DNA of 32,000 nt, taken from assembly GCF_001598795.1 (NCBI RefSeq), contig NZ_BCZP01000008.1, positions 150,001 to 182,000 on the forward strand. Direction: 5' to 3'. Shown piece by piece: positions 2,969 through 28,040 of this stretch. The notes beneath the pieces were generated by a model, which was given only the letters and a program-made list of their open reading frames with translations, was not told where the DNA came from and searched no databases. The stretch's first letter is position 1, and each line of letters starts with the position of its first letter. The position numbers and the translations under genes are program-made. This DNA comes from Delftia acidovorans NBRC 14950. GTDB lineage: Bacteria > Pseudomonadota > Gammaproteobacteria > Burkholderiales > Burkholderiaceae_C.

Positions 2969-4546
2969 ATGCGGCGAAACGTGTACGTCACCCAGCGTGA
3001 GTACCCTCTGAGCGAAGGAGAGACGCTTCTTTCCGTCACCGACCTGAAGGGGCGCATCGTCTATGCCAACGATGCCTTCATCCGCGTCAGCGGCTTCGAG
3101 GCCGCCGAGCTCTACGGCAAGGCCCACAGCATCGTGCGCCATCCCGACATGCCGGCCGCCGCCTTTGCCGACATGTGGTCCACCATCCAGCGCGGGCTTC
3201 CCTGGAGCGCCCTGGTCAAGAACCGGCGCAAGAACGGCGACCACTACTGGGTGCGCGCCAACGCCAGTCCCATACGCCATGCGGGCGCCGTGGTCGGCTA
3301 CCTGTCCGTGCGCACCCGGCCCGAGCCGCGCGAGGTACAGCAGCATGCGGCGCTCTATGAACAGATCAATGCCGGCGTGCGCTCGCTTGGCCTGCACCGG
3401 GGCTTTCCCGTGGGGCGTGGCGCCGTGGGCGCACTGCAGCGGTGGTGGCGCTTTCGGCCACTGGCCTGGCGCGTGCAGGCCGTGGTGGCCGGCCTGTGGC
3501 TGCTGGGGTCGGCCGGGCTGTGGTCACCCGCGCTGCAGGCATCGGCCGTGCCGCTGGCGCAGGTCTGGCCGGCCTGGCTGATCTGGAGCCTGGCCTGCGT
3601 GGCGGCCGGGCAGTGGCTGCGCAGCCGGCTGCTCATGCCCCTGGCGGCGCTGCGCGGTCAGGCCCAGGCCGTGGCCAGCGGGCAGCAGACCGATGCACGG
3701 TTCCTGCAGCGCACGGACGAGATCGGTGCCATCGGCAGCGCCGTGCGGCAGACCGGGCTCAACCTGGTCTCCCTGGTCGGCGACATCCAGGGCAAGAGCG
3801 ACCAGGTGCGCCGCTGCGCGCTGGCCGTGCAGCAGGGCAGTACCGAACTGAGCGACCGCACCGAGGCCGCGGCCGCAAGCCTGGAGCAGTCGGCCCAGGC
3901 CATGCAGGCCCTGGCCAGCGCCATCGAGCGCAGCAGCGCCCAGGCCGGCGAGGCCGCCGCCCGCGCGCGGCACGGCGTGGACATGGCGGGGCGGAGCAGC
4001 CGCATGGTCGTGCAGCTGGACCAGGGCATGCGCGGCGTGGCCCAGACCAGCGACCAGGTGGGGCAGATCAGCTCGCTCATCGACGGCATCGCCTTCCAGA
4101 CCAACCTGCTGGCGCTCAACGCCGCCGTGGAGGCGGCACGCGCGGGGGAACACGGCAAGGGCTTTGCCGTGGTGGCCGACGAGGTGCGCGGCCTGTCCCA
4201 GCGCAGCGCCCACGCCGCGCGCCAGATCAAGGCGTTGATCGAGGCATCGCAGCAGCAGGTGGCGCAAAGCTGCGCCATGGCGCGTGAAGTGGGCGAGGCC
4301 ATGCTGGCCGTGCAGGCCGATATGCGCGAGCAACTGGTGCTGGCCGAAGGCATGCAGGCCGCCAGCCAAGCCCAGGCCGGCGGCGTGCAGCAGGTGCAGG
4401 CCGCCGTGCAGCAGCTCGAACAGATGACCCAGCACAATGCTGCCCTGGCGCGCAACACCATCGGGCACGCACAGCTGCTGGCCGGACAGGCGCAGGCGCT
4501 GGAGGCGGCGGCATCGGTCTTTCACGGCAACGGGGCGTCCGCATGA
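2969..4546 (+). CDS. aer: Aer-like PAS-domain methyl-accepting chemotaxis protein (aerotaxis/energy-taxis receptor type)
   Basis: The N-terminal PAS block [73 protein letters not shown] closely matches the Aer FAD-PAS motif as I recall it. A hydrophobic hairpin sits mid-protein. The MCP signalling core is [45 protein letters not shown]. Confidence 0.9.
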
Positions 4547-6315
4547 TGGCGGCGGGCTGGAGCATGGTTGCCTGTGATCCCGCCGCACCGGGCGAGGCGC
4601 TGGACGAAGACCTCAAGCGCGTGGCCATGGAGGCCGCGCCCGACGGTATCTTGCTTGTGGACCGCAGCGGCCGCATCCTGCTGGCCAATCCCGCCATGCA
4701 GGCCATGAGCGGCTATGGCGCCGCCGAATTGCTGGGCCACTCGCTGCAGATGCTGCTGCCGGCCGAGGCGCAGGCGGCCCACGGGCCGCAACTGCAGTCC
4801 TACTTCGCCCAGCCCGCGCGCCGGCCCATGGGCCAGGGGCGGGACCTGTGGCTGCTGCGCAAGGACGGCAAGCGCCTGTCGGTGGACATCGCCCTGGGCC
4901 ACTCGCCGCACGGCAGTGGCGTGGCCGTGGCCTTTGTGCGCGACCTGTCGCAGCTGCGCCAGATGGAAGCCTGCATGCACTACCACGCCACCCACGACAC
5001 GCTGACCGGCCTGCTCAACCGCTGGCAGTTCGGGCTGCAGGTGGAACAGGCGATCTCGCAAGCGCAGGCGCAGGCTGAATCGGGCGCCGGCCCCGCGTCC
5101 TTTGCGCTGCTGCTGCTCGACCTCGACAACTTCAAGGCCATCAACGACGGTTATGGCCACGACGTGGGCGACCAGGTCCTCAAGGAGGTGGCGCGCCGCC
5201 TGCAGGTCGCGCTGGGCGGCTCGGCCACGCTGGCGCGCATGGGCGGTGACGAGTTCACCGCCCTGCTGCAGCCCTGCAACGAGCCCGATCTGCGCCAGCG
5301 CATCGACGCGCTGCTGCACGAGCTGTGCCGGCCCTGCACCATAGGCCACTACGCGCTGAACTTCGGTGCCAGCGTGGGCGCAGCCTTCTATCCCCAGGAC
5401 GCGGGCGATGCGGCCACCCTCATGCGCTATGCCGACATGGCCATGTACGACGCCAAGCAGCGCAGCCGCTCCTCCTATGCGCGCTATGCCTGCGCCATGG
5501 GCGAGGCCATGGCCGAGAAAGTGCTGCTGCACGAACGCCTCAAGCGTGCCCTGGACCGGGGCCTGCTGAGCCTGCACTTCCAGCCCCAGGTGCAGGTGCT
5601 GGGCGGCCAGGTCCAGGGCGTGGAAGCCCTGCTGCGCTGGAACGACGAGCAGATGGGCTGGGTCTCGCCCGAACGCTTCGTGCCCGTGGCCGAATCCACG
5701 GGGCTGATCCTGGCGCTGGGGGAATGGGTGATCGATGCTGCCTGCCGCCAGGCCGGCGACTGGCTGCGCGCAGGCATGCCGCTGCGCGTGGCGGTCAACC
5801 TCTCGGCCCAGCAACTGCGCCAGGCCGACCTGCAGCAGCGCCTCATGGCCAGCCTGGCCCGGCATGGCGTGCCGCCGCACCTGCTGGAACTGGAAGTCAC
5901 CGAGTCCGCCGCCATGACCGACCCTCTGCAGGCGCGCGAGCTGCTGGGCAGCCTGCTGGCGGCCGGCGTCTGCGTGGTGCTGGACGATTTCGGCACCGGC
6001 TACTCCTCGCTGGCCCACCTGCGCGATCTGCCCGTCTCGCGCGTGAAGATAGACCGCACCTTCATCGGCCCCATGCTCGACAGCCCGGCCGACGCCAAGA
6101 TCGTCAAGGCCGTGATCGCGCTGGCCCGAACCCTGGGCCTGCAGGTGGTCGCCGAAGGTGTGGAAACGGCCGAGCAACTGCGCCTGCTGCGCATCCTGGA
6201 CTGCGACGCCTACCAGGGCTGGCTCTTCGCCCGCGCCATGCCGGCAGAGCAGATTCCTGCGCTGATCCACAGGCCCGTGGCGACGCTGCTGGCGCAGCAG
6301 GCGGGGGTGGCTTAG
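4543..6315 (+). CDS. PAS-GGDEF-EAL protein (c-di-GMP cyclase/phosphodiesterase)
   Basis: It has a PAS-like N-terminus ([27 protein letters not shown]), an intact GGDEF motif ([11 protein letters not shown]) and EAL-domain motifs ([24 protein letters not shown]). Its ATG at 4543 overlaps the aer-like TGA at 4544-4546 (ATGA). Confidence 0.9.
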
Positions 6316-6334: not shown

Positions 6335-6730
6335 TCAGGCCTGCCTTTGGAGATGCCTGCGCGCAGCGCGCAACAGATGATTGACGGCGTGCAGCATGAG
6401 GTCATCCCTGTCGTCGCCGTTCACGCGCTGGAGGATTCCCACGGCACGGTCCAGGTCCGAAGACATTCTGGGCAGTACCACAGCCTCCATGTCTGGCAGG
6501 GGCTCGTTGTTCATGTGGCCATAGGCCGTGTCGTAGTAGCTGCGCAGCAAATCGCGCGCGCCATGCACGTCCGGGTACTGGCACTGCTGCGCGTGCACTT
6601 CCAGCACGGCCAGCGCCGCTTCCATATGGCATAGCGCATCGGACGCCAGGTCCTCGGCGTTGAACACAGGCTGCGGGGGCGGGCTTGCACACGCCTGGCG
6701 GGCAGGCGCCGATATGCCATCATCCGACAT
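6335..6730 (-). CDS. Hypothetical protein, 131 aa, no recognised family
   Basis: This is the longest ORF in the interval. Third codon positions are GC-rich. An SD-like AAGGA lies about 9 nt upstream of the ATG at 6730. It runs divergent to the XRE gene. I recognise no motif in it. Confidence 0.5.
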   Translation of the reverse strand: MSDDGISAPARQACASPPPQPVFNAEDLASDALCHMEAALAVLEVHAQQCQYPDVHGARDLLRSYYDTAYGHMNNEPLPDMEAVVLPRMSSDLDRAVGILQRVNGDDRDDLMLHAVNHLLRAARRHLQRQA

Positions 6731-6880: not shown

Positions 6881-7336
6881 ATGGGAAATCCCGATTTCGC
6901 GAACCGTCTGGCAGACGCTCGAAGCCGTCTGCACCTGACCCAGGTCGAACTGGCCGTGGCCAGCGATATTGCCGCCACACAGATCAGCCGTTACGAGACC
7001 AGGAGGGCCAAGCCGCGCCCGGACGTTGCCAAGCGCCTGGCTGCCGCGCTCGCTGTGGATCTGGAGTGGTTGCTCAGCGGAACAGAGTCGCCGGAGAATG
7101 AAAAAGCGCCCAGTGGGGGCGAGCCTGCGTCAAATCTGGTCTTGCGAGCCACCGCGGATACGGCAAGGCGATGGGGGGAAATCCTTGCCAGAACCGGACT
7201 GGCGCCAGAGCAGCTGTTTCGCCGGATGGTGCTTGAGTTCGAGGCGCAGACAGAGACCAGGTACGGAGAACTTCTTCACCGTATCGAGCGGTTGGAGCAG
7301 GCGTTGGGAGGCCATAAGAACGTTGGAAAAGACTAG
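6881..7336 (+). CDS. XRE-family helix-turn-helix transcriptional regulator
   Basis: The N-terminal HTH_XRE pattern is LADARSRLHLTQVELAVASDIAATQISRYETRRAKPRPDVAKRLAAAL. The 151-aa protein has a C-terminal half of unknown function. Confidence 0.8.
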   Translation: MGNPDFANRLADARSRLHLTQVELAVASDIAATQISRYETRRAKPRPDVAKRLAAALAVDLEWLLSGTESPENEKAPSGGEPASNLVLRATADTARRWGEILARTGLAPEQLFRRMVLEFEAQTETRYGELLHRIERLEQALGGHKNVGKD

Positions 7337-7342
7337 TCTTTT
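7327..7342. repeat. Copy 2 of the palindrome, AAAAGACTAGTCTTTT (perfect 16 bp), containing both convergent stop codons
   Basis: The central CTAG (7333-7336) supplies TAG for the XRE gene (7334-7336, +) and TAG for the Crp/Fnr gene (7333-7335, -). Both proteins therefore end in K-D-stop. Confidence 0.9.
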
Positions 7343-8076
7343 TTGCTGGCCGTCTGCCCTTCGCCGCCTCCATCCTGCACACCCGCCCCACTGATCCTCA
7401 ACAACACCGCAGGCTGCAGCACGCAATGCCATCGATCTGGCCGCTCCAGCGCGCCGAGCTGCACCAGGCGCACAAGGCTGCGCGCGATGGTTTCGCGCGT
7501 GGTGGCCAGCAGGGCGGCCAGTGCGCCCTGGCTGGGCAGGCGCACGAGCAGGCTTGACTGCAGCGCGGCCAGTTGCATCAGGGTGGCGGCCAGCTGGCGC
7601 AGCACGCCGGGGATGCGGACGATGTGGGCCCATTCCGCCAGCAGGGCGTTGTTGCAGGTGTAGCTGGTGGCCAGCGCGCGCACGAAGGCGGCATCGACCA
7701 GGCCGCGGCGCGTGATGGTGGCGATGTCCACGCAGCAGATGCGCCCCGGGCCCAGTGCCTCGAAGTGCATGGCCGAGGGCTGCTGCAGCCAGCCCGGGCT
7801 GCCCAGCGCATGGCCGTTGCCGAACAGCGCCACGGGCCGCTGCACGCCGTCGCCGCCACGGCGGATGGCCAGGACGAAGCCGATCTTGATCACCTGGAAT
7901 TCATGGGCGACGCTGCCCTGTGCCTGGAGCTTCTGGCCCTTGGCCAGGCCGCGTTCGCGGATATGCGGCAGCCATTGCTGGAATGCGGGCTCGGGCAATT
8001 GGCCCAGCAGGCAATGGGACGAACGCATGCATTCGCTGCAGCGAACCGCTGAAGGCGTGGAGGACGACGATGGCAT
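7333..8076 (-). CDS. Crp/Fnr-family transcriptional regulator with an FNR-like N-terminal Cys cluster
   Basis: The N-terminal CSECMRSSHC (C-x2-C-x5-C) has the same spacing as E. coli FNR C20/C23/C29, and an internal ICCVD may correspond to the fourth Cys. A central beta-roll-like effector domain is present. The C-terminal HTH is LLATTRETIARSLVRL. Confidence 0.8.
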   Translation of the reverse strand: MPSSSSTPSAVRCSECMRSSHCLLGQLPEPAFQQWLPHIRERGLAKGQKLQAQGSVAHEFQVIKIGFVLAIRRGGDGVQRPVALFGNGHALGSPGWLQQPSAMHFEALGPGRICCVDIATITRRGLVDAAFVRALATSYTCNNALLAEWAHIVRIPGVLRQLAATLMQLAALQSSLLVRLPSQGALAALLATTRETIARSLVRLVQLGALERPDRWHCVLQPAVLLRISGAGVQDGGGEGQTASKKD

Positions 8077-8263: not shown

Positions 8264-9250
8264 TCAGACGGCTGCGGTGCTGTCGGCGTTGTTGGCGCTG
8301 CCGCTGCTGTCACTGCTGCCACTGCTGCCACTGCCGTGCGCGCGGGCAGCCTCGCGCATGCGTGCCAGTTCGCGTGCGGGCAGCGGGATGTCGCCGCTGG
8401 CGACCTTCATCAGCAGGCAGTGCAGCATTTCGGTGGACAGGCCGTGCAGCACCAGGCGGTGGCCGGCGCGCAGGGTGGACAGGGGCACCAGCGGGTGCTT
8501 GTTGTTGAGCATGACCAGATGCTCGGGCGAGGCGAGGATCTTGGCCGCATAGATGGCCACGGTCTCGTCCAGCTGCAGCGAGTTGCTGGCGCGCCAGAAG
8601 TCGTTGTCGGTCAGCAGCAGCTGGTAGACGGGCGTGTAGACCTCGATGGCGCTTTGCAGGTCCAGCAGGTTCAGGCGCCCGCGCGGCATGTCCTCAAGGC
8701 GCAGGGGCGGGTTGCGCAGCATGGCGAAGTCGGGCTCGGCCACGGGCTGCAGTTCCTGGCCTGCGGCGCGCAGCGCGTTGTTCAGGCGGATGACGAAGTT
8801 GAACAGGTTCAGGTCGTGCCTGAGGAACAGGTCGTCCTTGATGTCGTCGATGCTGTCCGGCTCCAGCGGTGTGGTGGACACGGGCGTGGGCGCGTTGGCC
8901 GCGACAAAGGCCAGGATCTGCGAGCCCAGGTGGAAATGGCGCAGGATGAGCCAGTTGGCCTCGGGCGAGACGAAGCGGTTCATGCTGAAGGCCAGCAACC
9001 GGTGCAGCAGCCTGGAGTGCGCCCAGTTGCGCGGCAGCAGCACCTTGAGGATCTGGATGAGCACGATGCTGGTGCGTGCCAGCGGCCGCAGGAAGGGCAG
9101 CAGGTACTGGCGCGAGCCGCTGCTGCAGTCACGCAGCCAGGCGGCCTTGACGTCGTCGGGCAGCGGCGTGCTCTGGTCCAGGTACAGCGCGCGCCAGGGG
9201 CTGGGGTCGCGCTCGTCGTGGGGCGGTTCGATAAAGTCTGGTGGTTGCAT
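8264..9250 (-). CDS. Hypothetical protein (328 aa) with a Ser/Gly-rich C-terminal tail; last gene of the lipid-type operon
   Basis: The start ATG at 9250-9248 overlaps the TGA of the upstream gene (ATGA). The sequence begins MQPPDFIEPPHDERDPSPW.... It has one hydrophobic segment (ARTSIVLIQILKVLLP) and ends HGSGSSGSSDSSGSANNADSTAAV. I recognise no family. The 659-aa ORF in the track (8264..10243) is an upstream extension of this reading frame that overlaps the KAS III::HDO gene out of frame. Confidence 0.7.
   Translation of the reverse strand: MQPPDFIEPPHDERDPSPWRALYLDQSTPLPDDVKAAWLRDCSSGSRQYLLPFLRPLARTSIVLIQILKVLLPRNWAHSRLLHRLLAFSMNRFVSPEANWLILRHFHLGSQILAFVAANAPTPVSTTPLEPDSIDDIKDDLFLRHDLNLFNFVIRLNNALRAAGQELQPVAEPDFAMLRNPPLRLEDMPRGRLNLLDLQSAIEVYTPVYQLLLTDNDFWRASNSLQLDETVAIYAAKILASPEHLVMLNNKHPLVPLSTLRAGHRLVLHGLSTEMLHCLLMKVASGDIPLPARELARMREAARAHGSGSSGSSDSSGSANNADSTAAV
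8296..8334. repeat. Trinucleotide/9-nt low-complexity repeat encoding the Ser/Gly tail
   Basis: GCTGCCGCTGCTGTCACTGCTGCCACTGCTGCCACTGCC contains ACTGCTGCC units in tandem. All units are in frame. Confidence 0.8.
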
Positions 9251-11202
9251 CAGTGCTCCTCGGGCAGGACATGCTCGAACTGCATCAGGTACAGCGCCGC
9301 CGTGTGGCGCGCGGTGCGCACGATGGCCTGCGCCGCCGTGCCCCCGCTGCCGTCTGTGCCGTCCAGCGCCATCACCATCTGCACGGCCATGAGCCAGCGC
9401 TCCAGGTGGTGTTCGTCGTTGGCTCCGTGGTATTCCAGGAAGCGGAAGGCATCGGGCGGCAGCGGCAGGCTGGCGCGCAGCAGCGGCAGCAGGCTGGGCA
9501 CGATGCGCTGGCCCGTGCCTTCGATGATGTAGATGGCGCCCAGCAGGCCGATCGGATTGGGCGTGGCGGCCAGGCCGTGCAGGTAGGCGTTGAGCGCCTC
9601 GCCGCCGGGGTTGCGGCGCAGGCGGGTGAGGTCGGTCTCGGTGCCGCCGGCCTTGAGGTAGTCCTCGTGCAGGATGCGGAAGTCGTTCTGCTCCTCGCCC
9701 GCATGCACGTCGATCAGCGCGGCCAGCGCCGCGTGCTCGCCGGTCAGCGAGGCCGCGCCCTCGCGCATCCACAGGCTGCCCTCGCGCACTTGGGGAACCC
9801 AGTGGCTCATCCAGCGCACGTAGTCGGCGGTCTGCAGCCTGCCTGTGCGTATGCGCTGCAGCAGCGGCGTGCGCCACACGCGCGAGCGGTAGTCCTGCCA
9901 GAGGCTGGCCAGTTCGGTCAGCAGCGGCGCCAGCGTGGCCGGGGCCTGGTTCGGGTCGTGGGGCGGGGCGATGGTGGAGACATCGGGCAGCAGGTCCGGG
10001 GCAGCGGGAGCTTCGGCGGTGGCACTGCGTGCTGTGGCCTTGGCCAGGGTGGCGGCGGGAGCCTGGGCCGCATCCTCCACTTCCAGCAGCATGTAGCCGG
10101 CCGTGAAGCGGCCCGATTCGGGAATGAAGCACAGCACGGTATCGCCGTGCTTCAGGCGTGCCGATTCCGTGCGCAGGAACTCGGACAGCATCACGAAGAT
10201 GGAGGCCGCGCCCGTGTTGCCGCGCCAGGCCAGGTTGCTCCACCAGCGCTCGCGCGGGATGCCGAGCTGGGCCTTGCCCAGCAGCTCATCGACCACGGGG
10301 ATGAAGCGCTCGGACGAGTAGTGGCACAGGAAATGGTCGATGCCGCGCCCGGGCACCCAGCCCGTGTGGGCCAGGTGGGCGTATTCGTGGATGCAGACAT
10401 CGAACAGGTGCGGCAGCAGGCGGATGTCCTGGCGCAGCGACAGCGCGCCTGCGGCCTCGGCATCGCCCCAGGCGGCAAAGTCCAGGTGGCTGGTGGCGCG
10501 GTCGGGCGTCAGGCCCAGCTGCATGCAGACCGGGTAGTCGCCCGCAAAGCTGCGCAGGTGCGTCCAGCGCAGCTTCAGGCGCAGGCCGGGCGCCTGGGGC
10601 AGGGCCTGCGGGCCGCCCAGCAGCACGGCGCCTGCGCCATCGGACAGCATCCAGCGCAGGAAGTGGGCGTCGAAATCCGTGTTGTATCCCTGGGCCGCGA
10701 AGCGCGAGCGCTTGAACAGGCGCGAGGGCATTTCGCTGGCCACGGCCAGGGCCAGCAAGTCGGGCGCGCGGTCCACGGCCTGGGCCGCTGCCTGCAGCGC
10801 GCCCACGCTGGCGGCGCAGACGCCGTGCACGGACAGGGTCTCCATGGGCGGCGCGGCCATCTCGCCCTGGATCATGTTGGCAAAGCCGGGCATGAGCGCA
10901 TCGCCGCCCGACGAGCCGCTGGCCAGGAAGCCGACATCGCCCAGCGCACGCCCGGCCTGTGCCAGGCAGTCATGGATGGCCTGGGCGGCCATGGCCGTGT
11001 TGCTGTGGACGGTGCGGCCTTCGGCGTCTATGGCGTAGTGGCGCTGGACAATGCCGTTCTCGGCCAGGATGCGGCGCTTGAGGCGCTCGGACAGGCGGTT
11101 GAGCGGCGCCACGTAGGCATCCATGCCTGCGTTGTCCACGGGTTCACCGGGCAGGAACATGCCTGCGGCATGCAGATAGACGTTGGAATAGGCGACGGGC
11201 AT
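9250..11202 (-). CDS. Fusion protein: KAS III (FabH-like) condensing-enzyme domain + heme-oxygenase-like diiron oxidase (iron-containing redox enzyme family) domain
   Basis: - The protein is 650 aa.
- aa 1-376 (nt 10075-11202) carry a Cys/His/Asn triad in KAS III contexts: HGVC129AAS, FLCH294YSS and RGN329TGAAS.
- aa 377-425 form an Ala/Pro-rich linker.
- aa 426-650 (nt 9253-9927) are helical, with carboxylate/His ligand-like motifs: HAGEEQNDFRILHED, IIEGTG and LEYHGANDEHHLE. Confidence 0.8.
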   Translation of the reverse strand: MPVAYSNVYLHAAGMFLPGEPVDNAGMDAYVAPLNRLSERLKRRILAENGIVQRHYAIDAEGRTVHSNTAMAAQAIHDCLAQAGRALGDVGFLASGSSGGDALMPGFANMIQGEMAAPPMETLSVHGVCAASVGALQAAAQAVDRAPDLLALAVASEMPSRLFKRSRFAAQGYNTDFDAHFLRWMLSDGAGAVLLGGPQALPQAPGLRLKLRWTHLRSFAGDYPVCMQLGLTPDRATSHLDFAAWGDAEAAGALSLRQDIRLLPHLFDVCIHEYAHLAHTGWVPGRGIDHFLCHYSSERFIPVVDELLGKAQLGIPRERWWSNLAWRGNTGAASIFVMLSEFLRTESARLKHGDTVLCFIPESGRFTAGYMLLEVEDAAQAPAATLAKATARSATAEAPAAPDLLPDVSTIAPPHDPNQAPATLAPLLTELASLWQDYRSRVWRTPLLQRIRTGRLQTADYVRWMSHWVPQVREGSLWMREGAASLTGEHAALAALIDVHAGEEQNDFRILHEDYLKAGGTETDLTRLRRNPGGEALNAYLHGLAATPNPIGLLGAIYIIEGTGQRIVPSLLPLLRASLPLPPDAFRFLEYHGANDEHHLERWLMAVQMVMALDGTDGSGGTAAQAIVRTARHTAALYLMQFEHVLPEEH

Positions 11203-11217
11203 GGGTTCAGGGTCGTA

Positions 11218-12153
11218 TCAGTCGTATGTTCCGGGAGGCATTTGCGCACGCGTGCGCGCCGGCGGCCAGACCGTGCCGAGCACGAAGACGCGGGCCATGT
11301 AGGGTAGCAGTCCGCCTTCGTTGAGCGCAGGTGTCACGCGCTGGCGATAGTGTTCGCTGTGCAGGCGCGTGAGCTCGGACCAGTGGGCCTGGGGCCGCTC
11401 GTGGTGGGCCGTGTGCAGGCCGATGTTGAACAGCAGCGGATTGACCCAGCCCTCGAAATTGCGTGCGTAGTTCAGTGGCGTGGCGCTGTCCATCCGCTGG
11501 CCGCGCGTCAGCGGCCGGCCATCGGCATGGGCGTGCTGCAGGTAGTTGGTGGCCAGCAGCCAGTGCAGGCCATGCAACTGGGGAACGATCACCAGCAGCA
11601 AGGCCTTTTGCCAATCCAGCGACAGCAGCAGTGCCCAGCTGCCCAGCCACAGCAGGTACTGGCCCATGCAGTAGCGAAAGGCACCGGGCCAATGCCGCCG
11701 CAGCTGGCCCAGCCAGCGCAGGAACAGCGGGTACAGCACCCAGCCGGCCTGCAGCGGGTGGAGCAGGTAGCCCGGCAGATGGTTGTGGTCGCCGCCGAAG
11801 CGGTAGGTGCGTGCCATGTCGCGCGGGCCGTGGCGGAAGCGGTGGTGGTTGGCCACATGGGCGGGCCAGAACACAAAGGTCGGGTGGCCCTGCAGCAGGG
11901 TCAGCCAGTAGTCGGTGAAGCGGTTGGCCCAGCGCCCGCGCCACATGCGCAAATGCGTGTGGTTGTGGTGGATGACGCCCACGCCCAGCGTGAGGAACAG
12001 CTCGATCCCGTAGAGCCACAGGTTCCAGCCGTGCTGCCACTGCCACCACACGATCAGCGGCAGCGCCACCAGATAGGCCAGCGACTGCAGGTCGCGCCAG
12101 TGGCGCAGCCGGGGCAGCCATGGCTGGGCGTGGCGAGCAGGTGGTCGGCTCAT
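11218..12153 (-). CDS. Membrane fatty acid desaturase family protein (three His boxes)
   Basis: The His boxes are IHHNHTH, HVANHHRFRH and HTAHHERP, with hydrophobic segments between them. The ATG at 12153 overlaps the upstream TGA (ATGA). Confidence 0.8.
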   Translation of the reverse strand: MSRPPARHAQPWLPRLRHWRDLQSLAYLVALPLIVWWQWQHGWNLWLYGIELFLTLGVGVIHHNHTHLRMWRGRWANRFTDYWLTLLQGHPTFVFWPAHVANHHRFRHGPRDMARTYRFGGDHNHLPGYLLHPLQAGWVLYPLFLRWLGQLRRHWPGAFRYCMGQYLLWLGSWALLLSLDWQKALLLVIVPQLHGLHWLLATNYLQHAHADGRPLTRGQRMDSATPLNYARNFEGWVNPLLFNIGLHTAHHERPQAHWSELTRLHSEHYRQRVTPALNEGGLLPYMARVFVLGTVWPPARTRAQMPPGTYD

Positions 12154-12896
12154 TCCGTCCTGGGCCGGGCCGTGGCGGGCAGTGCTACGCGCGTTCGCAT
12201 CAGCCGGTCCATGAAGGCCAGCGCAAAGCCGTAGTTGCCATTGGGCCGGGCATGGTGCAGATGGTGGCGCCGGCTGGCGGCCAGCGCATGCGTGTCGGAC
12301 ACCCCGGGAAAGAAGTCATAGTTGGAGTGGCCTATGACGTTCAGCAGCAGGCTGAGTACCGGCACCGAGGCCAGCGACCAGAAACTGAAGTCATGCACCA
12401 CCATGGGCAGCAGGATGACGTTGCCCAGCATCAGCGCTTCGATGGGATGAAAGCTGTAGGTGGACCACGGCGTGGTGACGATGGAGCGGTGGTGGTCACC
12501 ATGAAAGCGCCCCAGCAGCCGCGTATGCAGCAGGCGGTGGTTGATCCAGAAATGCACATCGTTCCAGATCAGCAGCACCGCGATTTCGATGGCAATGCGC
12601 CAGGGGCCTGCATCGGGCTCCAGCCGCGCCCACCCCAATTGCAGAAGGCCCCAGGGCACGATCATGCCGATGCCGAAGATCAGCACCGAATGCAGCGACT
12701 GGCGCCATTCGCGGCGCAACTGATCGGGCTTGAGCGGGCGCGTGTCCAGCACGCGGCCCACGCCGCGCCGCTGCAGCCAGCGCGTAAGCGCCGTCATGCC
12801 CCAGCCGCCGGTCGTGTACAGCACGCCGAAGAAGAGCAGGCCCCAGGCCATGACCTGCCAGGCGTTGAGTTCGGTGAAGGCTTGGGCAGCGGTCAT
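12150..12896 (-). CDS. Fatty acid hydroxylase / sterol desaturase superfamily protein
   Basis: The His motifs are HFWINHRLLH, HGDHHRS, GHSNYD and RHHLHHARPNGNYG, which is the FA_hydroxylase pattern. Multiple TM segments are present. I prefer the ATG start at 12896, but a GTG at 12914 (1 nt after the Bug stop) is possible. Confidence 0.8.
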   Translation of the reverse strand: MTAAQAFTELNAWQVMAWGLLFFGVLYTTGGWGMTALTRWLQRRGVGRVLDTRPLKPDQLRREWRQSLHSVLIFGIGMIVPWGLLQLGWARLEPDAGPWRIAIEIAVLLIWNDVHFWINHRLLHTRLLGRFHGDHHRSIVTTPWSTYSFHPIEALMLGNVILLPMVVHDFSFWSLASVPVLSLLLNVIGHSNYDFFPGVSDTHALAASRRHHLHHARPNGNYGFALAFMDRLMRTRVALPATARPRTE

Positions 12897-12915
12897 GGCA
12901 GTGTGATCGAGCACG

Positions 12916-13908
12916 TCATTGCGCGTGGATTCCCTGTTCGCGGATGATGCGGCCCAGTGCCGTCACGTCCTGGCGTATGCGCAGGGCCAGGCCCTCGGGT
13001 GAGCTGCCGACAGCCTGCCAGCCCTGGGCGGCCAGGCGTGCACGCATCTCGGGCGAGCGCACGATCTCGCTGACCGCTTCGGCCAGCTTCTGCACATGGG
13101 CGGCGGGCATGGCCTTGGGCGCGGCCACGGCGTTCCAGATCTCCAGATCGAAATCCCCCACGCCCAGCTCCTTGAGGCTGGGCAGTCCCGGCGCCAGCGG
13201 GCTGCGCGCGGCCGACGTCACGGCCACGCCGCGCAGCTTGCCGGCCTGCACCTGGGCCATGGCCAGTGCGGGCGGCAGCATGGACAGCTGCAGGTCGCCG
13301 CCCTGGATGGCGTTGAACACCTGCGGATAGCCGGGGTAGGGAATGTGTTCGGGCCTGAGCGCGGAGCGGCTCTTGAGCAGCTCCATGCCCAGGTGGCCCA
13401 CCGTGCCCACGCCTGGGGAACCGTAGCTCCAGCGGCTGCCGGCCTGGGCAGCGGCCTCCAGGAAGGCCCGGCCTTCGGGCGCGCCAGCCGGAGCCACCAG
13501 CACCAGGGGCGCCACGCCGATCAGGCTGACGGGCTGCAGGTCCTTCACAGGGTCGTAGCGCACGGCGGGGTTGAGCAGGCGGGCAATCGTCAGGTTGCCG
13601 TTGATCATCACGCTGAAGGTATGGCCGTCGCGCGCACGGGCCACCTGCTCGCCTGCGATGTTGCCGCCTGCGCCCACCTTGTTCTCGACGATGACGGGCT
13701 GGCCCAGACGCTTTTCCAGCGGCTCGGCCAGTGCGCGCGCCGTGAGGTCCGGGGAAGATCCTGCGGGAAAGCCGACGATCAGGTGCAGCGGCTTGCTGGG
13801 CCAGTTGTCGCCCGCCACGGCAGCGCAAGGCAGCAGGGCCGAGGCCAGGGCGGTGGCCAAGGCATTGGCGAAGAGGCGGCGTAGTGGCGAGATGGCGCTG
13901 GCGGGCAT
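12916..13908 (-). CDS. Bug family (TctC-like) periplasmic tripartite tricarboxylate transporter substrate-binding protein
   Basis: The signal peptide is MPASAISPLRRLFANALATALASALLPCAAVA. It is followed by WPSKPLHLIVGFPAGSSPDLTARAL, typical of Bug proteins. The track start at 13941 is a TTG, so I prefer the ATG at 13908. Confidence 0.85.
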   Translation of the reverse strand: MPASAISPLRRLFANALATALASALLPCAAVAGDNWPSKPLHLIVGFPAGSSPDLTARALAEPLEKRLGQPVIVENKVGAGGNIAGEQVARARDGHTFSVMINGNLTIARLLNPAVRYDPVKDLQPVSLIGVAPLVLVAPAGAPEGRAFLEAAAQAGSRWSYGSPGVGTVGHLGMELLKSRSALRPEHIPYPGYPQVFNAIQGGDLQLSMLPPALAMAQVQAGKLRGVAVTSAARSPLAPGLPSLKELGVGDFDLEIWNAVAAPKAMPAAHVQKLAEAVSEIVRSPEMRARLAAQGWQAVGSSPEGLALRIRQDVTALGRIIREQGIHAQ

Positions 13909-13942
13909 GGGGTACGTGGGGGCCGCAAAGGCTGCGGACAAT

Positions 13943-13968
13943 AAAAAACCCGGAGATTATCCGGGTTT
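13943..13968 (-). terminator. Rho-independent terminator of rpoH
   Basis: The minus strand reads AAACCCGGA-UAAUC-UCCGGGUUU followed by UUUUU. The 9-bp stem pairs 13946-13954 with 13960-13968. It lies 38 nt after the rpoH stop. Confidence 0.8.
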
Positions 13969-15136: not shown

Positions 15137-15925
15137 TTACAGTTTTTCCAGCAGGCTTTCAATCTGCCGGCCCAGTTGCAGCAAGGCCGGGTGCAGCTCC
15201 TGCACGATGGCCGGCAAAGGCTCCGTGGTGGAGACGCTGCAGTTCAGGACATAGATGGCATCGGGTGTCACCAGCGGCGTGGCCAGCGCAACCACTTCCG
15301 GCTGCCACGATGCGGCGCAGAAGCCTTGGCTTTTCACGGACTTGATCGCCGCCTGGATCTGCTGCTCCAGCGCAGGCCATTGGGCGCCCCTCTTGAGCCT
15401 GAAGCTGTCGAGCAAGGCCTTGCGCCTGGCCGATGGCGCCGCCGCCAGGTAGGCGCGCCCCAGCGACGTCAGCTCCATGGGAACGCGCTGCCCCGAGACC
15501 ACATGCCTGAGCACGATCCGGCGGTTGTAGCGTATGGATTCCAGGTAGACCATCTCGTCCCGGTCGGGACATGCCAGGCCCACGTTGATCCTGCGTGTCT
15601 CGGCGAGGGTGCGCATCAGGGGCGCCGCAATCGACAGCACCGTCGAGCCCGTGCGCATGGCGTGCGCCAGGCTCAGGACCGCCGGGGCCAGGCGAAAGGC
15701 CCGGCTTGGGTGGTCGGCCTGCAGCATGCCGCAGCCGACCAGGGTCTGCGTCAGCCGGGTGACCGTGGCCTTGGACAGGCCGGTGCGTTCCGCCAGGTCG
15801 CTGTTGCCCAGCAGTTCCGAGCCGGGCCTGAACGCACGGAGTATTTCGACGCCTCTTTCCAGGGAGCGGTTGCTCGGGGACTGTCCCGGCTTGTCATGGA
15901 GGATGGGGGATCGCCTGTTCGTCAT
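15137..15925 (-). CDS. IclR family transcriptional regulator
   Basis: The N-terminal wHTH is SLERGVEILRAFRPGSELLGNSDLAERTGLSKATVTRLTQTL, followed by an IclR-type effector domain. I prefer the ATG at 15925 (MTNRRSP) over the longer track ORF. Confidence 0.8.
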   Translation of the reverse strand: MTNRRSPILHDKPGQSPSNRSLERGVEILRAFRPGSELLGNSDLAERTGLSKATVTRLTQTLVGCGMLQADHPSRAFRLAPAVLSLAHAMRTGSTVLSIAAPLMRTLAETRRINVGLACPDRDEMVYLESIRYNRRIVLRHVVSGQRVPMELTSLGRAYLAAAPSARRKALLDSFRLKRGAQWPALEQQIQAAIKSVKSQGFCAASWQPEVVALATPLVTPDAIYVLNCSVSTTEPLPAIVQELHPALLQLGRQIESLLEKL

Positions 15926-16201
15926 GCTGCTGCCGCTGGTGGGGGACCGCGCTTGCCCCGGTGTCGAAAGCTGTGTTCTTCCTGCCCGGGTACGGGCGCC
16001 TGATGGAAGCCAAGTATTCCACCGAATGCAAGGGAAATGCAGCCGCAGGCTCTGGCGCGCCCGCTTTGGAATTTCACTGGTTGGAATATGGGGGGTCACA
16101 AGTGCGGTGCGTTTCCCTAAGCTTTCACAAGCCAGTCGCCAGCGTCATCGCAACGCTGGCGCAGTGACCGGACCTCTGTCCATAGAACCAGGAGACACAC
16201 C

Positions 16202-17179
16202 ATGCCCAGTTTCGCCGCCCGCCGTTGTGCAAGGGCCATTGCGTTCATTGCCGTGCTCGCGACTGTCTGCAGCGCAGCATCTGCAGCCTTCCCGGAAAAG
16301 CCCGTGCGCCTCGTCGTGCCCTTTGCGCCAGGCGGTGGAACGGACCTGATCGCCCGCACGCTGGGGGCCGAGATGGCCAAGGACCTGGGCCAGCCCGTCA
16401 TCGTGGACAACAAGCCCGGTGCCGGCACGATCATCGGCACCGACAACGTTGCCAAGAGTGCGCCGGACGGTTACTCCGTGGTCGTGGCTTCGTTCGCGCA
16501 CGCCGTCAATCCGGCGTTGCAGGCCAAGCTGCCGTACGGGAGCAACAAGGCCTTTGCTCCGGTGATCCTGATCGGCCGCGGCCCCAACGTGCTGGTGGTG
16601 CCCGCCGCCAGCCCGTACAAGACGGTGGCGGACGTGATGGCCGCCGCCAAGGCCAGTCCCGACAAGCTGACCTATGCCTCGCAGGGCGCCGGGACTTCGG
16701 CGCATCTGGCGGGTGAGCTGTTTGCCAACCTTGCCAAGGTCAGGCTCACCCATGTGCCCTACCGCGGCGCAGGCCCGGCGCTCACCGATCTCATGGGCGG
16801 GCAGGTGGACATGATGTTCGCCACGGCGGCGGCGGTATCCACCTTCATCGACAACGGCAAGCTGCGCGTACTGGGTGTCACCACGGCCGAGCCGTCAGCG
16901 GCCTTCAAGAACGTGCCACCCATCGCCGTCACCGTCCCGGGCTACCGCGTCGAGAGCTGGTACGGCCTGTACGCGCCGGCAGCCACACCTGCCGCCGTGA
17001 TCGATCGCCTGAACGCCGCGGCCCGCAAGGCGGCCCGCTCGCCGGAGTTCGTTCGCAAGCTGGAGCACGAGGGCCTGATGGTCAATGCAGGACCTGCCGC
17101 GGAACTGGACACCTATGTGCAGGCCGAGGAAAAGCGCTGGGCGCAGATCGTCAAGCAAAACAACATCCATCCCGATTGA
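16202..17179 (+). CDS. Bug family (TctC-like) periplasmic substrate-binding protein
   Basis: A signal peptide is followed by FPEKPVRLVVPFAPGGGTDLIARTL, and the length (325 aa) is typical. It is divergent from the IclR gene. Confidence 0.85.
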   Translation: MPSFAARRCARAIAFIAVLATVCSAASAAFPEKPVRLVVPFAPGGGTDLIARTLGAEMAKDLGQPVIVDNKPGAGTIIGTDNVAKSAPDGYSVVVASFAHAVNPALQAKLPYGSNKAFAPVILIGRGPNVLVVPAASPYKTVADVMAAAKASPDKLTYASQGAGTSAHLAGELFANLAKVRLTHVPYRGAGPALTDLMGGQVDMMFATAAAVSTFIDNGKLRVLGVTTAEPSAAFKNVPPIAVTVPGYRVESWYGLYAPAATPAAVIDRLNAAARKAARSPEFVRKLEHEGLMVNAGPAAELDTYVQAEEKRWAQIVKQNNIHPD

Positions 17180-17212
17180 TCGCACTGGCTGCGATCGCTT
17201 TCAAAGCACGCC

Positions 17213-18004
17213 ATGAACTACGAACTGATCCAACTGAATGTCGCCGATGCGGTGGCGACCGTGACCCTGAACCGCCCCGACAAGCGCAACGCCATGAGTG
17301 ACGACATGCGCACCGAGTTCATTGATGCCCTGGAGCGCGTGGCGGCAGACAAGGCCATCAAGGCCCTGGTGCTGACAGGCGCGGGCAAGGGATTTTGCGC
17401 AGGCGGTGACATTGCCGGAATGCAAAGGCGCATGAATGCTCCCGCGGGCGAGGTGGGCTTCAACGGCTGGCAGCGCCAGCAGCGCGTGCACCATGTCCAG
17501 GCCCTGCTGCATACCATGCCCAAGCCCGTGATCGCCGCCGTCAACGGCGCAGCGTCGGGCCTGGGGGCGGACACGGCGCTGGCCTGCGACTTCGTGATCG
17601 CCAGCGAATGGGCCAGCTTCGCGTGGAGCTATGTGCTGCGCGGCATCATCCCGGACGGCGGCGGCATGTACTTCCTGCCGCGCCGTGTGGGCCTGGCCAA
17701 GGCCAAGGAGCTGATCTTCACGGGGCGCCAGGTCAAGCTGCCGGAAGCCCTGGCCCTGGGCATCGTGGACCGCCAGGCCAGTGCCGAGACCTTGGTGGCA
17801 GAGGCCCAGGCCTGGGCGCGCGAGCTGTCCTCGGCTTCTTCCACCGCGCTGGCATTGACCAAGACCATCCTGAACCAGAGCTTCGAGCTGTCTTCGCACG
17901 ATGTCTTCGCCCAGGGCAGCCAGGCCCAGGGCATCTGCTACACCAGCAGTGAACACCGCGCATCGGTGGAGGCCTTCCTGGCCAAGACAGCCGGCAAGGA
18001 GTGA
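17213..18004 (+). CDS. Enoyl-CoA hydratase/isomerase (crotonase) family protein
   Basis: Crotonase motifs are present: LNRPDKRNAM, LTGAGKGFCAGGDI and AAVNGAASGLGADTALACDF. Confidence 0.85.
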   Translation: MNYELIQLNVADAVATVTLNRPDKRNAMSDDMRTEFIDALERVAADKAIKALVLTGAGKGFCAGGDIAGMQRRMNAPAGEVGFNGWQRQQRVHHVQALLHTMPKPVIAAVNGAASGLGADTALACDFVIASEWASFAWSYVLRGIIPDGGGMYFLPRRVGLAKAKELIFTGRQVKLPEALALGIVDRQASAETLVAEAQAWARELSSASSTALALTKTILNQSFELSSHDVFAQGSQAQGICYTSSEHRASVEAFLAKTAGKE

Positions 18005-18008
18005 TGCC

Positions 18009-20111
18009 ATGAGCGAAGCCATTGCCAAGCTGCTGTCGCCGCGCAGCGTCGCCGTCATAGGCGCCTCTGCCGACCTGAAAAAGACCACGGGCCGTCCGGT
18101 GGCCTACCTGCAAAAGCACGGGTTTGCCGGCCGCATTCTTCCCGTCAATCCGCGCGTGGAGCGCATCGGCGATCTGGCCTGCTATCCCGATGTGGCCTCG
18201 TTGCCTGAAGTGCCTGATGTGGCCGTCGTGCTGCTGGGCGCCGAGCGTGCGCACCAGGCCGTCAGGGAGCTGTCGGCGCTGGGCTGCGCGGCAGCCATCG
18301 TGCTGGCCAGCGGCTATACGGAAACGGGCGAGGAGGGCGCACTGCGCCAGCGGCAATTGGTCGAGGCGGCCGGCAGCATGCGCCTGCTGGGGCCCAACAC
18401 CATCGGGCTGGTCAACCTGACCGACCGGATCGTGCTGTCGCCCTCGGGCGCGCTGGAGATGGACGAGTTCCCCGTCGGAGGCATCGGTGTCGTCTCGCAA
18501 AGCGGCGGCATCCTGGGCTCGCTGCTGTCGCGCGCCGCCGCGCGTGGCATCGGCCTGTCCAAGCTCATCTCCACCAGCAACGAAGTCGATCTGGAACTGG
18601 CCGATTTCATCGACCACCTGGCCGATGACCCGGCCACCAAGGTGATCGCGCTGTATGTGGAGACGGTGCGCCATCCCGCCAGGTTCCGTGCCGCCTGCCT
18701 GAAGGCCGCGCGTGCCGGCAAGCCCGTGGTGGCCTTCAAGATCGGCCGCTCCGAGGCTGGCGCCAAGGCTGCCGTATCGCACACGGGGGCCATGGCCGGT
18801 GCGGATCGCATGTACGACGCGCTGTTCCGGCAGGTCGGCGTGATCCGTGCGCAAAGCTTTGCCGACCTGCTGGACGTGCCCGCTGCGCTGGCCACGGGCC
18901 GCAGGCTGCGCGGCAGGCGCATCGCCATCCTGACGTCCACCGGCGGTGCGGGCACCCTGGTGTCGGACGATCTGGGCGTGGCCGGATTCGACACGCCGGC
19001 CCCTGACCAGGCGACGGCCGACGCACTGCGCGCGCTGCAGACCGGCAGCGAGGCCGTGCTGGACCGCAACCCCATCGACGTGACCCTGGCGGGCCTGCGT
19101 CCCGACCTGCTGCGCGGCGCCATCAATGCCTTGCTGGCAAGCCCCAGCTACGACGCGCTGGTGATCATCGTCGGCTCCTCCAGCCTGGCCATGCCCGAGC
19201 TGCTGGCCGGTGCCATCCAGGACTGCCTGCCCCACTCCGACAAGCCGGTGCTGGCCTACGTCAGCCCGCATGCGCCGGAAATCGGCGCGCTGCTCACGCA
19301 ACGCGGCGTGCCGGCCTTCGCTGCGGCGGAAAGCTGCACGGCCGCGCTGGCGGGCATGCTGCGCGTCAACGGCTTCCAGGGTGCGCCTTCCGAGCTGGTC
19401 GTAGGAAAAGGCTCCCTGCATGACCAGGACCTGCCCGTTGGCTGCCTCGATGAAGCGCAGGCCAAGGCCGTTTTCCGCCGTTTCGGCGTGCCGTGCGCGG
19501 CCGAGCGTGTGGTGCGCACCGCCGAAGAGGCCGAAGCCGCCGCGCGCGAACTGGGCGGCCGGGTGGTGCTCAAGATCCTTTCGTCCCAGATCACGCACAA
19601 GAGCGATGTGGGCGGTGTCGCCGTCGGCCTGACTGCGCAAACCATAGGTGCCCGGATGGGCGCGATGGTGGCCGAGGTGCAGGCCAGGGCGTGCGTGCGC
19701 CCGGACCGGTTCCTGGTGCAGCAGATGGTGGCTGGTGGCACCGAGCTGATTCTTGGCCTGCACAAGGATGCGCTGGGCACCGCCGTGATGCTGGGCATGG
19801 GAGGCGTGACGGCCGAGCTGTTCCAGGACACCACGCTGCGGTTGCTGCCGGACGACGGCTCACAGCTGGGGGTGCTGAGCCTGTCTGACGCACTGGAGAT
19901 GGCCAGGGAGCTCAAGACCTGGCCGCTGCTGGACGGCTTTCGCGGCCGGCCCAGGGCCGATGTCGATGCGCTGGCCCATGCCATCGTCGCGTTCTCTGCA
20001 ATGGCCGCCCGGCTGGGCGACCGCGTGATCGAAGCGGAGATCAACCCGGTGTTCGTGCTGCCGCAGGGCCAGGGCGTGTGCGCTGCCGATGGTGTGCTGG
20101 TTCTGGCCTGA
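18009..20111 (+). CDS. NDP-forming acyl-CoA synthetase (acetate--CoA ligase family, CoA-binding + ATP-grasp domains)
   Basis: The N-terminal CoA-binding block is LLSPRSVAVIGASADLKKTTGRPV. Succinyl-CoA-ligase-like middle domains are present, including VSHTGAMAG. The C-terminal ATP-grasp carries VVLKILSSQITHKSDVGGV. The ATG at 18009 lies 4 nt after the hydratase stop. Confidence 0.8.
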   Translation: MSEAIAKLLSPRSVAVIGASADLKKTTGRPVAYLQKHGFAGRILPVNPRVERIGDLACYPDVASLPEVPDVAVVLLGAERAHQAVRELSALGCAAAIVLASGYTETGEEGALRQRQLVEAAGSMRLLGPNTIGLVNLTDRIVLSPSGALEMDEFPVGGIGVVSQSGGILGSLLSRAAARGIGLSKLISTSNEVDLELADFIDHLADDPATKVIALYVETVRHPARFRAACLKAARAGKPVVAFKIGRSEAGAKAAVSHTGAMAGADRMYDALFRQVGVIRAQSFADLLDVPAALATGRRLRGRRIAILTSTGGAGTLVSDDLGVAGFDTPAPDQATADALRALQTGSEAVLDRNPIDVTLAGLRPDLLRGAINALLASPSYDALVIIVGSSSLAMPELLAGAIQDCLPHSDKPVLAYVSPHAPEIGALLTQRGVPAFAAAESCTAALAGMLRVNGFQGAPSELVVGKGSLHDQDLPVGCLDEAQAKAVFRRFGVPCAAERVVRTAEEAEAAARELGGRVVLKILSSQITHKSDVGGVAVGLTAQTIGARMGAMVAEVQARACVRPDRFLVQQMVAGGTELILGLHKDALGTAVMLGMGGVTAELFQDTTLRLLPDDGSQLGVLSLSDALEMARELKTWPLLDGFRGRPRADVDALAHAIVAFSAMAARLGDRVIEAEINPVFVLPQGQGVCAADGVLVLA

Positions 20112-26778: not shown

Positions 26779-26783
26779 GGCGG

Positions 26784-28030: not shown

Positions 28031-28040
28031 GTCGTCTCTC

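Follow-up and report, generated by a model that had tools for sequence, protein, structure and literature searches.

Enzymes of the StlD/DarB family catalyze a Michael addition followed by a Claisen condensation, through which a 2-enoyl thioester and a 3-oxoacyl thioester are joined into a carboxy-cyclohexanedione. They belong to the DarABC and StlCDE systems, which produce dialkylresorcinols in Pseudomonas, Chitinophaga, and Azoarcus and isopropylstilbene in Photorhabdus, and which antiSMASH assigns to its 'resorcinol' type. A cluster of this type is present in all Delftia genomes, where it resembles no known cluster (PMC9045143, PMC13339810, PMC5334598, PMC8248536), and Variovorax carries a stand-alone 'resorcinol' region that resembles no known cluster, in addition to a separate arylpolyene-resorcinol hybrid (PMC10946135). 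Here, a locus was analyzed in a stretch of 32,000 nucleotides (nt) from Delftia acidovorans NBRC 14950 (contig NZ_BCZP01000008.1, positions 150,001 to 182,000; hereafter the window), in which a StlD/DarB-like ketosynthase (KS) is fused to a predicted heme-oxygenase-like diiron oxidase (HDO) and is adjoined by a protein of the family DUF6999 and by two histidine-box membrane enzymes (Table 1). From the DarB-like KS, we infer that this locus is the 'resorcinol' cluster reported for Delftia and Variovorax, for which the papers give no coordinates. An earlier sequence-only reading of the window had held that the gene set is not a described pathway, and this was borne out: neither a KS-HDO fusion nor this gene set is described in the literature searched. 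The listianol cluster of Methylobacterium (PMC13192835), which was considered as a relative, proved to be a canonical DarA/DarB cluster without relation to this locus.

The KS domain aligns over its full length with StlD from Photorhabdus (PDB entry 5GK0; query residues 6-375 to chain residues 23-401, E 6.4e-57, phmmer against the PDB). Its best NCBIfam model is the StlD/DarB family beta-ketosynthase (NF005293, E 2.9e-88, profile positions 1-377 of 378), and FabH-type NCBIfam models give far weaker matches (E 2.8e-17). C129, E157, H294, and N329 of the KS align with the catalytic residues of StlD, which we take to be a Cys-His-Asn triad and an additional Glu numbered C126, E154, H302, and N335, and none of the four varies among 13 fusions with identities as low as 32%. 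The StlD mutant structure 5GK2 alters precisely the His that aligns with H294. The alignment and the conserved residues point to a StlD/DarB-type KS with an intact Cys-His-Asn-Glu active site, and not to a generic ketoacyl synthase III (KAS III). The original assignment of this domain to KAS III was right as to the thiolase-fold, KAS III-like family and is here narrowed to the StlD/DarB-like type.

The fusion itself was correctly recognized from the sequence as a KAS III joined to a heme-oxygenase-like oxidase, given that the matches to ACP_syn_III_C and Haem_oxygenas_2 both lie above the Pfam cut-offs. When isolated, the HDO domain matches PF14518 with 35.9 bits against a cut-off of 28.9, and it matches by sequence the heme-oxygenase-like-fold protein 3DDE (E 4.5e-7). 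An AlphaFold2 (AF2) model of the domain built from 12 close sequences has a predicted local distance difference test score (pLDDT) of 61, and in Foldseek the top matches of this low-confidence model are all heme-oxygenase-like: 3DDE (probability 0.97), HmuO, TenA, and RohS. Known HDOs bind their metals through a pattern of three His and three carboxylate residues that includes H-x3-D/E-x2-H. In the fusion, H500, E503/E504, E561, and H592-x3-D596-x2-H599 are invariant in 10 betaproteobacterial sequences and are kept in most distant fusions, and one distant fusion clade (P0248, P0250) is without the Glu pair and the last His. The domain is thus predicted to carry the complete 3-His/3-carboxylate metal-ligand set. 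The type of reaction performed by an HDO is not readable from its sequence.

The HDO and FA_desaturase families include the olefin-forming enzymes UndA and UndB, and a terminal-olefin product had been suggested for the locus on these grounds. A hydrocarbon pathway of this kind, in which a UndA-like HDO and a UndB-like desaturase would convert fatty acids into terminal alkenes and the KS would supply or elongate the acyl substrate, is very unlikely. UndA is the top, non-significant, Foldseek match of DUF6999, and no reductase or thioesterase is encoded, both of which would fit such a pathway; however, the KS is of the ring-forming StlD/DarB-like kind rather than an elongating or initiating KAS III and points to a cyclohexanedione or resorcinol scaffold instead. 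Moreover, the sequence matches of the HDO are to PF14518 and 3DDE instead of UndA, different lineages do not share one orthologous desaturase partner, and nothing specific ties either protein to UndA or UndB, with neither of which a direct comparison was made.

To define the genes that accompany the fusion, a pattern scan based on a DUF6999 alignment was performed, which detected relatives in 378 species genomes; the best 80 were retrieved and compared with the window proteins by tblastn. The hydroxylase, desaturase, KS::HDO fusion, and DUF6999 protein are arranged identically in order and orientation in 73 of the 78 informative loci, which are those not cut by a contig end, and because this order recurs in loci from other species, the arrangement is beyond chance. 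These cassettes are found at 65-85% amino acid (aa) identity in at least six genera (Delftia, Comamonas, Acidovorax, Variovorax, Achromobacter, and one Alcaligenaceae strain), and the same four genes are also present in Leeia and in Bordetella genomosp. 1. The closest relatives are from Delftia, with a fusion 91% identical to that of D. tsuruhatensis and a locus (L007) that is 95-99% identical throughout. The flanks of the cassette are unrelated from genus to genus, and when neighboring open reading frames (ORFs) were clustered, only the four cassette families occurred in at least six clades; no recurrent acyl carrier protein (ACP), thioesterase, ligase, reductase, transporter, or regulator was found near the cassette by this clustering. 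The statement that the cluster is without ACP, thioesterase, CoA ligase, and reductase thus agrees with both profile searches and neighbor clustering. The conserved unit is four genes, nt 8264-12914, and not five, and it is vertically conserved.

Reduced sets are also present. Corticibacter (L001/L027) and one further locus (L077) possess only the fusion and DUF6999, two Variovorax loci (L047, L048) possess a phospholipase D (PLD), the hydroxylase, and DUF6999 and are without the desaturase and the fusion, and in L051 the cassette is without the hydroxylase. A contig labelled 'Pantoea sp. 18069' (L029) carries a Comamonas-type cassette at ~80% amino acid identity and is probably a contaminant or mislabelled.

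To determine how far the core of the cassette extends, KS::HDO fusions were searched for among 1.8 billion representative proteins and their architecture was checked with Pfam. Full-length fusions were found down to 33% identity. DUF6999 adjoins the fusion in every lineage examined, including Polyangia and other distant lineages at 33-50% identity, and lies directly after it in all distant loci (L090-L095, Table 1). In L090, a single 868-aa protein call (P0257, 4054-7073) takes in the KS, the HDO, and the N-terminal half of DUF6999, and a 158-aa ORF with the remainder follows; this may be a true triple fusion disrupted by a frameshift or an artefact of frameshift or assembly, and it is counted as evidence of adjacency only. 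In the distant clusters, the desaturases are of a Delta9/SCD-like kind and not orthologous to the window desaturase, and the FA_hydroxylase of L095 is a 33%-identical homologue of the window hydroxylase that lies beside a distant KS::HDO. The invariant core is therefore KS::HDO and DUF6999, which has gathered differing O2-dependent diiron enzymes and lipid-handling genes around itself. A lipid and oxidative theme runs through the distant clusters, which contain MMPL, a PapA-type acyltransferase, beta-oxidation genes, desaturases, an FA_hydroxylase, and ExxH proteins, and this theme supports the pathway proposed below, as does the PLD-like gene directly upstream of the cassette in Variovorax and Leeia.

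Proteins with two ExxH motifs (DEVAHG and EKDEHRH) follow the desaturase in L093 and L095. They look like ferritin-like diiron proteins by sequence, and one of them has a faint Phenol_Hydrox match; this would be a further type of oxygenase in the distant clusters.

DUF6999 is a family without a described function and is not mentioned in the literature searched. The window protein matches its Pfam profile over 274 of 275 positions with 431 bits against a cut-off of 27, and 3404 protein clusters (at 90% identity) match it at E <= 1e-5, with relatives from Betaproteobacteria to Polyangia. The protein is ~70% identical between bacterial families. Among relatives at 23-29% identity, H105, H145-D146, D228-E229, H269, and E274 are invariant and H277 is present in seven of eight sequences, and the conserved residues include the motif H-x4-E-x2-H. 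The AF2 model is all-helical (pLDDT 72; predicted template modelling score 0.75) and places the conserved His, Asp, and Glu residues on four long helices, as expected for a dimetal site. DUF6999 may hence be a fourth metalloenzyme of the cassette. What had been described as an unknown 328-aa protein does lack a described function, but it belongs to a defined family and is probably a catalytic metalloprotein. That DUF6999 is a divergent HDO was considered and rejected: the top PDB matches in Foldseek (UndA, PolF, and HamA) are non-significant, with a best E of 0.85, hhalign against HDO-domain profiles gives a probability below 1%, and PDB profile searches are empty. In a forced alignment, H269, E274, and H277 of DUF6999 fall onto H592, D596, and H599 of the HDO, which is a weak hint only.

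Both membrane enzymes possess the full histidine-box sets of their superfamilies. The hydroxylase matches PF04116 with 79 bits against a cut-off of 31 and contains the HX4H, HX2HH, and HX2HH boxes of that superfamily as H121-x4-H126, H138-x2-H141H142, and H217H218-x-H220H221, which are invariant in nine orthologues from six genera; its hydrophobic segments are residues 73-96 and 155-195. The desaturase-family protein matches PF00487 with 74 bits against a cut-off of 29.7 and contains invariant HX3H, HX3HH, and HX2HH boxes (H63-x3-H67, H99-x3-H103H104, and H247-x2-H250H251). It also possesses an invariant NYLQHAHADG motif, which resembles what we take to be the NYxEHYG motif of AlkB and serves as a lead only. 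Neither protein has an NCBIfam equivalog or a sequence relative in the PDB.

We tentatively propose that the cassette encodes an O2-dependent route to an oxidized, fatty-acid-derived lipid of the 2,5-dialkyl-cyclohexane-1,3-dione or dialkylresorcinol type, probably further hydroxylated or quinone-like; this is quite possible, though short of probable. The KS would join a 3-oxoacyl and a 2-enoyl thioester into a carboxy-cyclohexanedione, as StlD and DarB do, and its substrates would be drawn from primary fatty-acid metabolism because the cassette encodes no ACP. The fused HDO would replace the DarA/StlC aromatase by an O2-dependent oxidative decarboxylation and desaturation, or would perform another oxidation of the ring. 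A UndA-like oxidative decarboxylation would be a single-step route to the aromatic ring and would account for the missing DarA; this step is less likely than the general model. No DarA-like aromatase or ACP was found beside the cassette among the neighbors in the window and in ~95 loci, a survey that included no direct search with a DarA reference and did not extend to the remainder of the genome. DUF6999 would be an additional metalloenzyme, a helical bundle with the same intermediate as its substrate; the ring or the alkyl chains would be hydroxylated or desaturated by the two membrane enzymes, one AlkB-like and one sterol-desaturase-like, and the hydrophobic product would be kept in, or exported to, the envelope. 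A bolder form of this proposal appears unlikely on balance. In it, KS::HDO and DUF6999 would constitute an ancient, cross-phylum two-protein machine for an undescribed class of oxidized resorcinolic or quinone-like lipids, with the HDO performing an oxidative decarboxylative aromatization instead of DarA and DUF6999 founding a new family of helical dimetal oxygenases.

Several observations weigh against the proposed route. The KS scores 296.5 bits against the NF005293 cut-off of 450 and 228.4 bits against the DarB model (NF053539) cut-off of 550, and so its chemistry may differ from that of StlD and DarB. Orthologues and distant fusions also lie below the StlD/DarB cut-off, at 296-444 bits, placing the KS clade, by its profile scores, at the periphery of the family. 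The HDO model, with its pLDDT of 61, is poor and too weak to rank HDO subfamilies, and the role of this domain as an aromatase is a chemical inference only. The status of DUF6999 as a metalloenzyme derives solely from its conserved residues, and no significant structural or profile relative of it was found in PDB sequence, profile, or fold searches. The existence of partial sets means that the four proteins need not share one substrate molecule, and ~70% identity between families is unusual for a specialized-metabolite cluster and could mean a housekeeping role. Finally, the cluster is an orphan whose product is predicted from its genes.

Some of these points would favor a role in the remodelling of pre-existing membrane lipids, in which the histidine-box enzymes would hydroxylate or desaturate the acyl chains of phospholipids or other envelope lipids and KS::HDO and DUF6999 would make or attach an unusual, branched or oxidized acyl group without a resorcinol ring. 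Very high sequence conservation is typical of core envelope functions, the KS lies below the StlD/DarB cut-offs, and MMPL, PapA-like, and beta-oxidation genes are neighbors in Polyangia. In addition, a PLDc_2 gene (PLD/cardiolipin-synthase-like) lies directly upstream of the hydroxylase in ~37 Variovorax loci, and a PLD gene is also found at this position in Leeia. However, the PLD genes of Variovorax and Leeia differ in subtype, Comamonas and Delftia are without one, the KS keeps the StlD-specific Glu in addition to the triad, and some genomes carry only KS::HDO and DUF6999. Remodelling is thus an improbable function. The PLD-like gene was considered as a fifth component of the cassette and was not adopted, given that it adjoins only in Variovorax and Leeia and in different subtypes.

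The chemistry of the proposed route could also yield a diffusible signal instead of a lipid with a structural or protective role, namely a quorum signal of the dialkylresorcinol or cyclohexanedione type like that of Photorhabdus PauR signalling. In favor of a signal, the cassette is compact, complete in itself, and found widely, and DarB-type products are known signals (PMC7154725, PMC4414361). A signal is nevertheless unlikely: no LuxR-solo or other regulator is conserved beside the cassette in any clade, the MMPL exporters and PapA-type acyltransferases beside its distant versions suggest an envelope lipid, and the presence of two tailoring enzymes that are integral membrane proteins speaks for a very hydrophobic product. 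Comamonadaceae are versatile degraders and oxygenase-rich clusters are often catabolic, and so the cassette could also be read as a degradation route for alkylresorcinols, alkylphenols, or similar lipids, in which the thiolase-fold domain would run in the cleavage direction. This is extremely unlikely, since the cassette has no conserved association with a ring-cleavage dioxygenase, dehydrogenase, CoA ligase, or transporter, the only known role of StlD/DarB-type enzymes is biosynthetic condensation, and the cassette is conserved across lineages of very different lifestyles.

The organization of the locus was examined by ORF analysis, codon-position GC, and reading of the junctions, which confirmed that five co-directional, near-abutting genes on the minus strand span nt 8264-13908 as the sequence-only reading had described; its family calls for all genes are also correct by Pfam profile search. 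The codon-position GC bias of all five ORFs (minus strand, 8264-13941) is that of real genes in a genome of ~68% GC. The longest ORF of the Bug/TctC gene starts at a TTG at 13941 (12916-13941). The hydroxylase starts either at a GTG 1 nt past the Bug stop or at ATG 12896, 19 nt past it, its junction with the desaturase is an ATGA overlap, and a gap of 15 nt separates the desaturase from the fusion; these spacings had been described before. The junction between the fusion and DUF6999, for which an ATGA overlap had been given, is in fact TGATG, where stop and start overlap by 1 nt. No terminator-like sites were found inside the cluster, and together with overlaps and gaps of at most 19 nt, this is consistent with a single operon. 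Upstream, rpoH (TIGR02392, 390 bits) ends at 14006 and the hairpin follows at 13968-13946. The gene cluster may be transcribed by read-through from rpoH or from a promoter inside or overlapping the hairpin region.

The distance from the hairpin to the Bug ATG is ~37 nt, which is too short for a standard promoter. No stop interrupts the DUF6999 frame for ~1 kb upstream, inside the fusion gene, and a spurious 659-aa ORF results (8264-10243, minus strand); many long antisense shadow ORFs overlap the cluster, as is typical of high-GC DNA.

Table 1. Features of the window and of related loci. Positions in the upper part are those of the window; rows with a locus handle give positions in that locus. 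MAG, metagenome-assembled genome.
Feature	Position (nt)	Strand	Remarks
Bug/TctC	12916-13908	-	ATG at 13908; PF03401, E 1.8e-51
FA_hydroxylase-superfamily histidine-box membrane enzyme, 254 aa	12150-12914	-	PF04116, E 5e-22; first cassette gene
FA_desaturase/AlkB-superfamily histidine-box membrane enzyme, 311 aa	11218-12153	-	PF00487, E 2e-20
KS::HDO fusion, 650 aa	9250-11202	-	ACP_syn_III_C and Haem_oxygenas_2
StlD/DarB-like KS domain of fusion, aa 6-375	10078-11187	-	N-terminal
Ala/Pro-rich linker of fusion, aa ~378-426			Between KS and HDO domains
HDO domain of fusion, aa ~427-650	9253-9924	-	C-terminal
DUF6999 protein, 328 aa	8264-9250	-	PF22523, 431 bits
Terminator-like hairpin	13946-13968	-	Upstream boundary of transcription unit; 9-bp stem, TTTATT tail; after rpoH
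Crp/Fnr-family regulator	7333-8076	-	HTH_Crp_2 and cNMP_binding; context only
L089, PLDc_2-like gene upstream of hydroxylase	3758-5332		
L087, PLDc_2-like gene upstream of hydroxylase	4209-5366		
L090, Polyangia MAG			Upstream Metal_hydrol and PapA-type condensation protein; downstream MMPL; N-terminal half of DUF6999 in fusion ORF
L091, Polyangia MAG			Upstream beta-oxidation genes; downstream MMPL, DUF1329, uncharacterized 558-aa protein, and FA_desaturase
L092			GNAT upstream of KS::HDO and DUF6999
L093/L094			RnfD-like upstream; FA_desaturase and 269-aa two-ExxH protein downstream
L093, two-ExxH protein, 269 aa	12082-12891		After desaturase
L095			Divergent FA_hydroxylase upstream; FA_desaturase and 243-aa two-ExxH protein downstream
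L095, two-ExxH protein, 243 aa	11992-12723		After desaturase

The genes that flank the cassette do not share its distribution. Bug and rpoH accompany it only in the Comamonas/Delftia lineage, Bug is not upstream of the cassette in Variovorax, Alcaligenaceae, Leeia, or several Comamonas and Acidovorax loci, and the gap between Bug and the hydroxylase in C. thiooxydans is ~250 nt. Bug genes are frequent here, and because the window holds a second one at 16202-17179, the adjacency of Bug to the cassette carries little weight. The translation of the Crp/Fnr-family regulator contains an FNR-like C13-x2-C16-x5-C22 pattern and a central C114/C115, a homologue of it adjoins the cassette only in four Delftia-like loci, and no FNR-box-like site (TTGAT-N4-ATCAA with up to two mismatches) was found near the operon. 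The association of the Bug gene, rpoH, and the FNR-like regulator with the cassette is one of local synteny, and they are not components of it.

A five-gene unit, in which Bug would import a carboxylate precursor and the FNR-like protein would make expression O2-dependent, is consequently highly improbable. In its favor, only 1-19 nt separate the Bug stop from the hydroxylase start, the Bug gene has a terminator-like hairpin before it, FNR-like cysteines are present in the regulator, and O2 would be required by all four enzymes. On the other hand, the narrow distribution of Bug, rpoH, and the regulator, the wide gap in C. thiooxydans, the commonness of Bug genes, the lack of an FNR-box-like site near the operon, and the absence of TctA/TctB membrane partners all speak against it. 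Bug as a pathway component was rejected on its phylogenetic distribution, and with it the suggested import of a carboxylate precursor loses its support; FNR regulation of the operon was set aside for want of an FNR-box-like site nearby. Of the regulatory context that had been proposed, the FNR-like call agrees with the Cys pattern, whereas the adjacency is confined to Delftia.

The window also holds other genes. Nucleotides 15137-20111, with an IclR regulator divergent from the second Bug/TctC gene, an enoyl-CoA hydratase, and an ADP-forming acyl-CoA synthetase, are a separate carboxylate-utilization unit that is not conserved with the cassette. An acetyl-CoA synthetase (21524-23494, minus strand) and a malonate decarboxylase operon (24510-29723, minus strand; mdcA and the acyl-carrier delta, gamma, and MdcB subunits) are unrelated to the cassette. 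Downstream of the regulator lie a PAS-MCP chemoreceptor and a PAS-GGDEF-EAL protein (2969-6315, plus strand), and between these and the regulator are an XRE-type helix-turn-helix gene (6881-7336, plus strand) and an unassigned 131-aa ORF (6335-6730, minus strand). A GGDEF-EAL gene is also found near the cassette in C. thiooxydans (L005).

With this analysis, the unexplained 'resorcinol' cluster of Delftia, Variovorax, and relatives gains an inferred locus, in which a StlD/DarB-type KS fused to a predicted diiron oxidase is tied to DUF6999. Solving the pathway would reveal a new class of lipid or cofactor in bacteria that are common in soil, on plants, and in the clinic, add a new reaction to the fast-growing HDO superfamily, and assign a function, possibly with a new metal site, to DUF6999. 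The four-gene definition is a compact 4.65 kb, and the reduced cassettes (L047, L048, L051, L077, and L001/L027) are natural 'deletion mutants' available for comparison.

Several described systems share single features with the cassette. The Polyangia pair, which lies beside a PapA-type condensation-domain acyltransferase and an MMPL transporter, follows the same export logic as the mycobacterial-type Pks/PapA/MmpL lipid loci, but this likeness is seen in distant relatives only and not in the window, and no modular polyketide synthase is present. The two membrane enzymes have all the canonical histidine boxes of AlkB/XylM hydroxylases, fatty-acid desaturases (PF00487), and the sterol-desaturase/CrtZ/FA-hydroxylase superfamily (PF04116), although the cassette, unlike those systems, encodes no rubredoxin, ferredoxin, or cytochrome b5 partner. 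The HDO resembles UndA, BesC, SznF, CADD, RohS, AetD, and PolF in its heme-oxygenase-like helical domain (PF14518), its predicted 3-His/3-carboxylate set, and its H-x3-D-x2-H motif, whereas it differs from them in being fused to a KS and in having as its nearest solved relative an uncharacterized structural-genomics protein, 3DDE. DarABC/StlCDE is the nearest system and has only the KS in common with the cassette, the substrates of which are presumably fatty-acid-derived likewise. In contrast to DarABC/StlCDE, the cassette is without a neighboring DarA/StlC aromatase and DarC/StlE ACP, its KS lies below the family cut-offs and is fused to an HDO, and it includes an obligate DUF6999 partner and two membrane histidine-box enzymes. 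Judged by its genes, the cluster is of a recognizable antiSMASH 'resorcinol' kind, and what appears to be new in it is the lack of a neighboring DarA, the pairing with DUF6999, and the fusion of the KS to an HDO.

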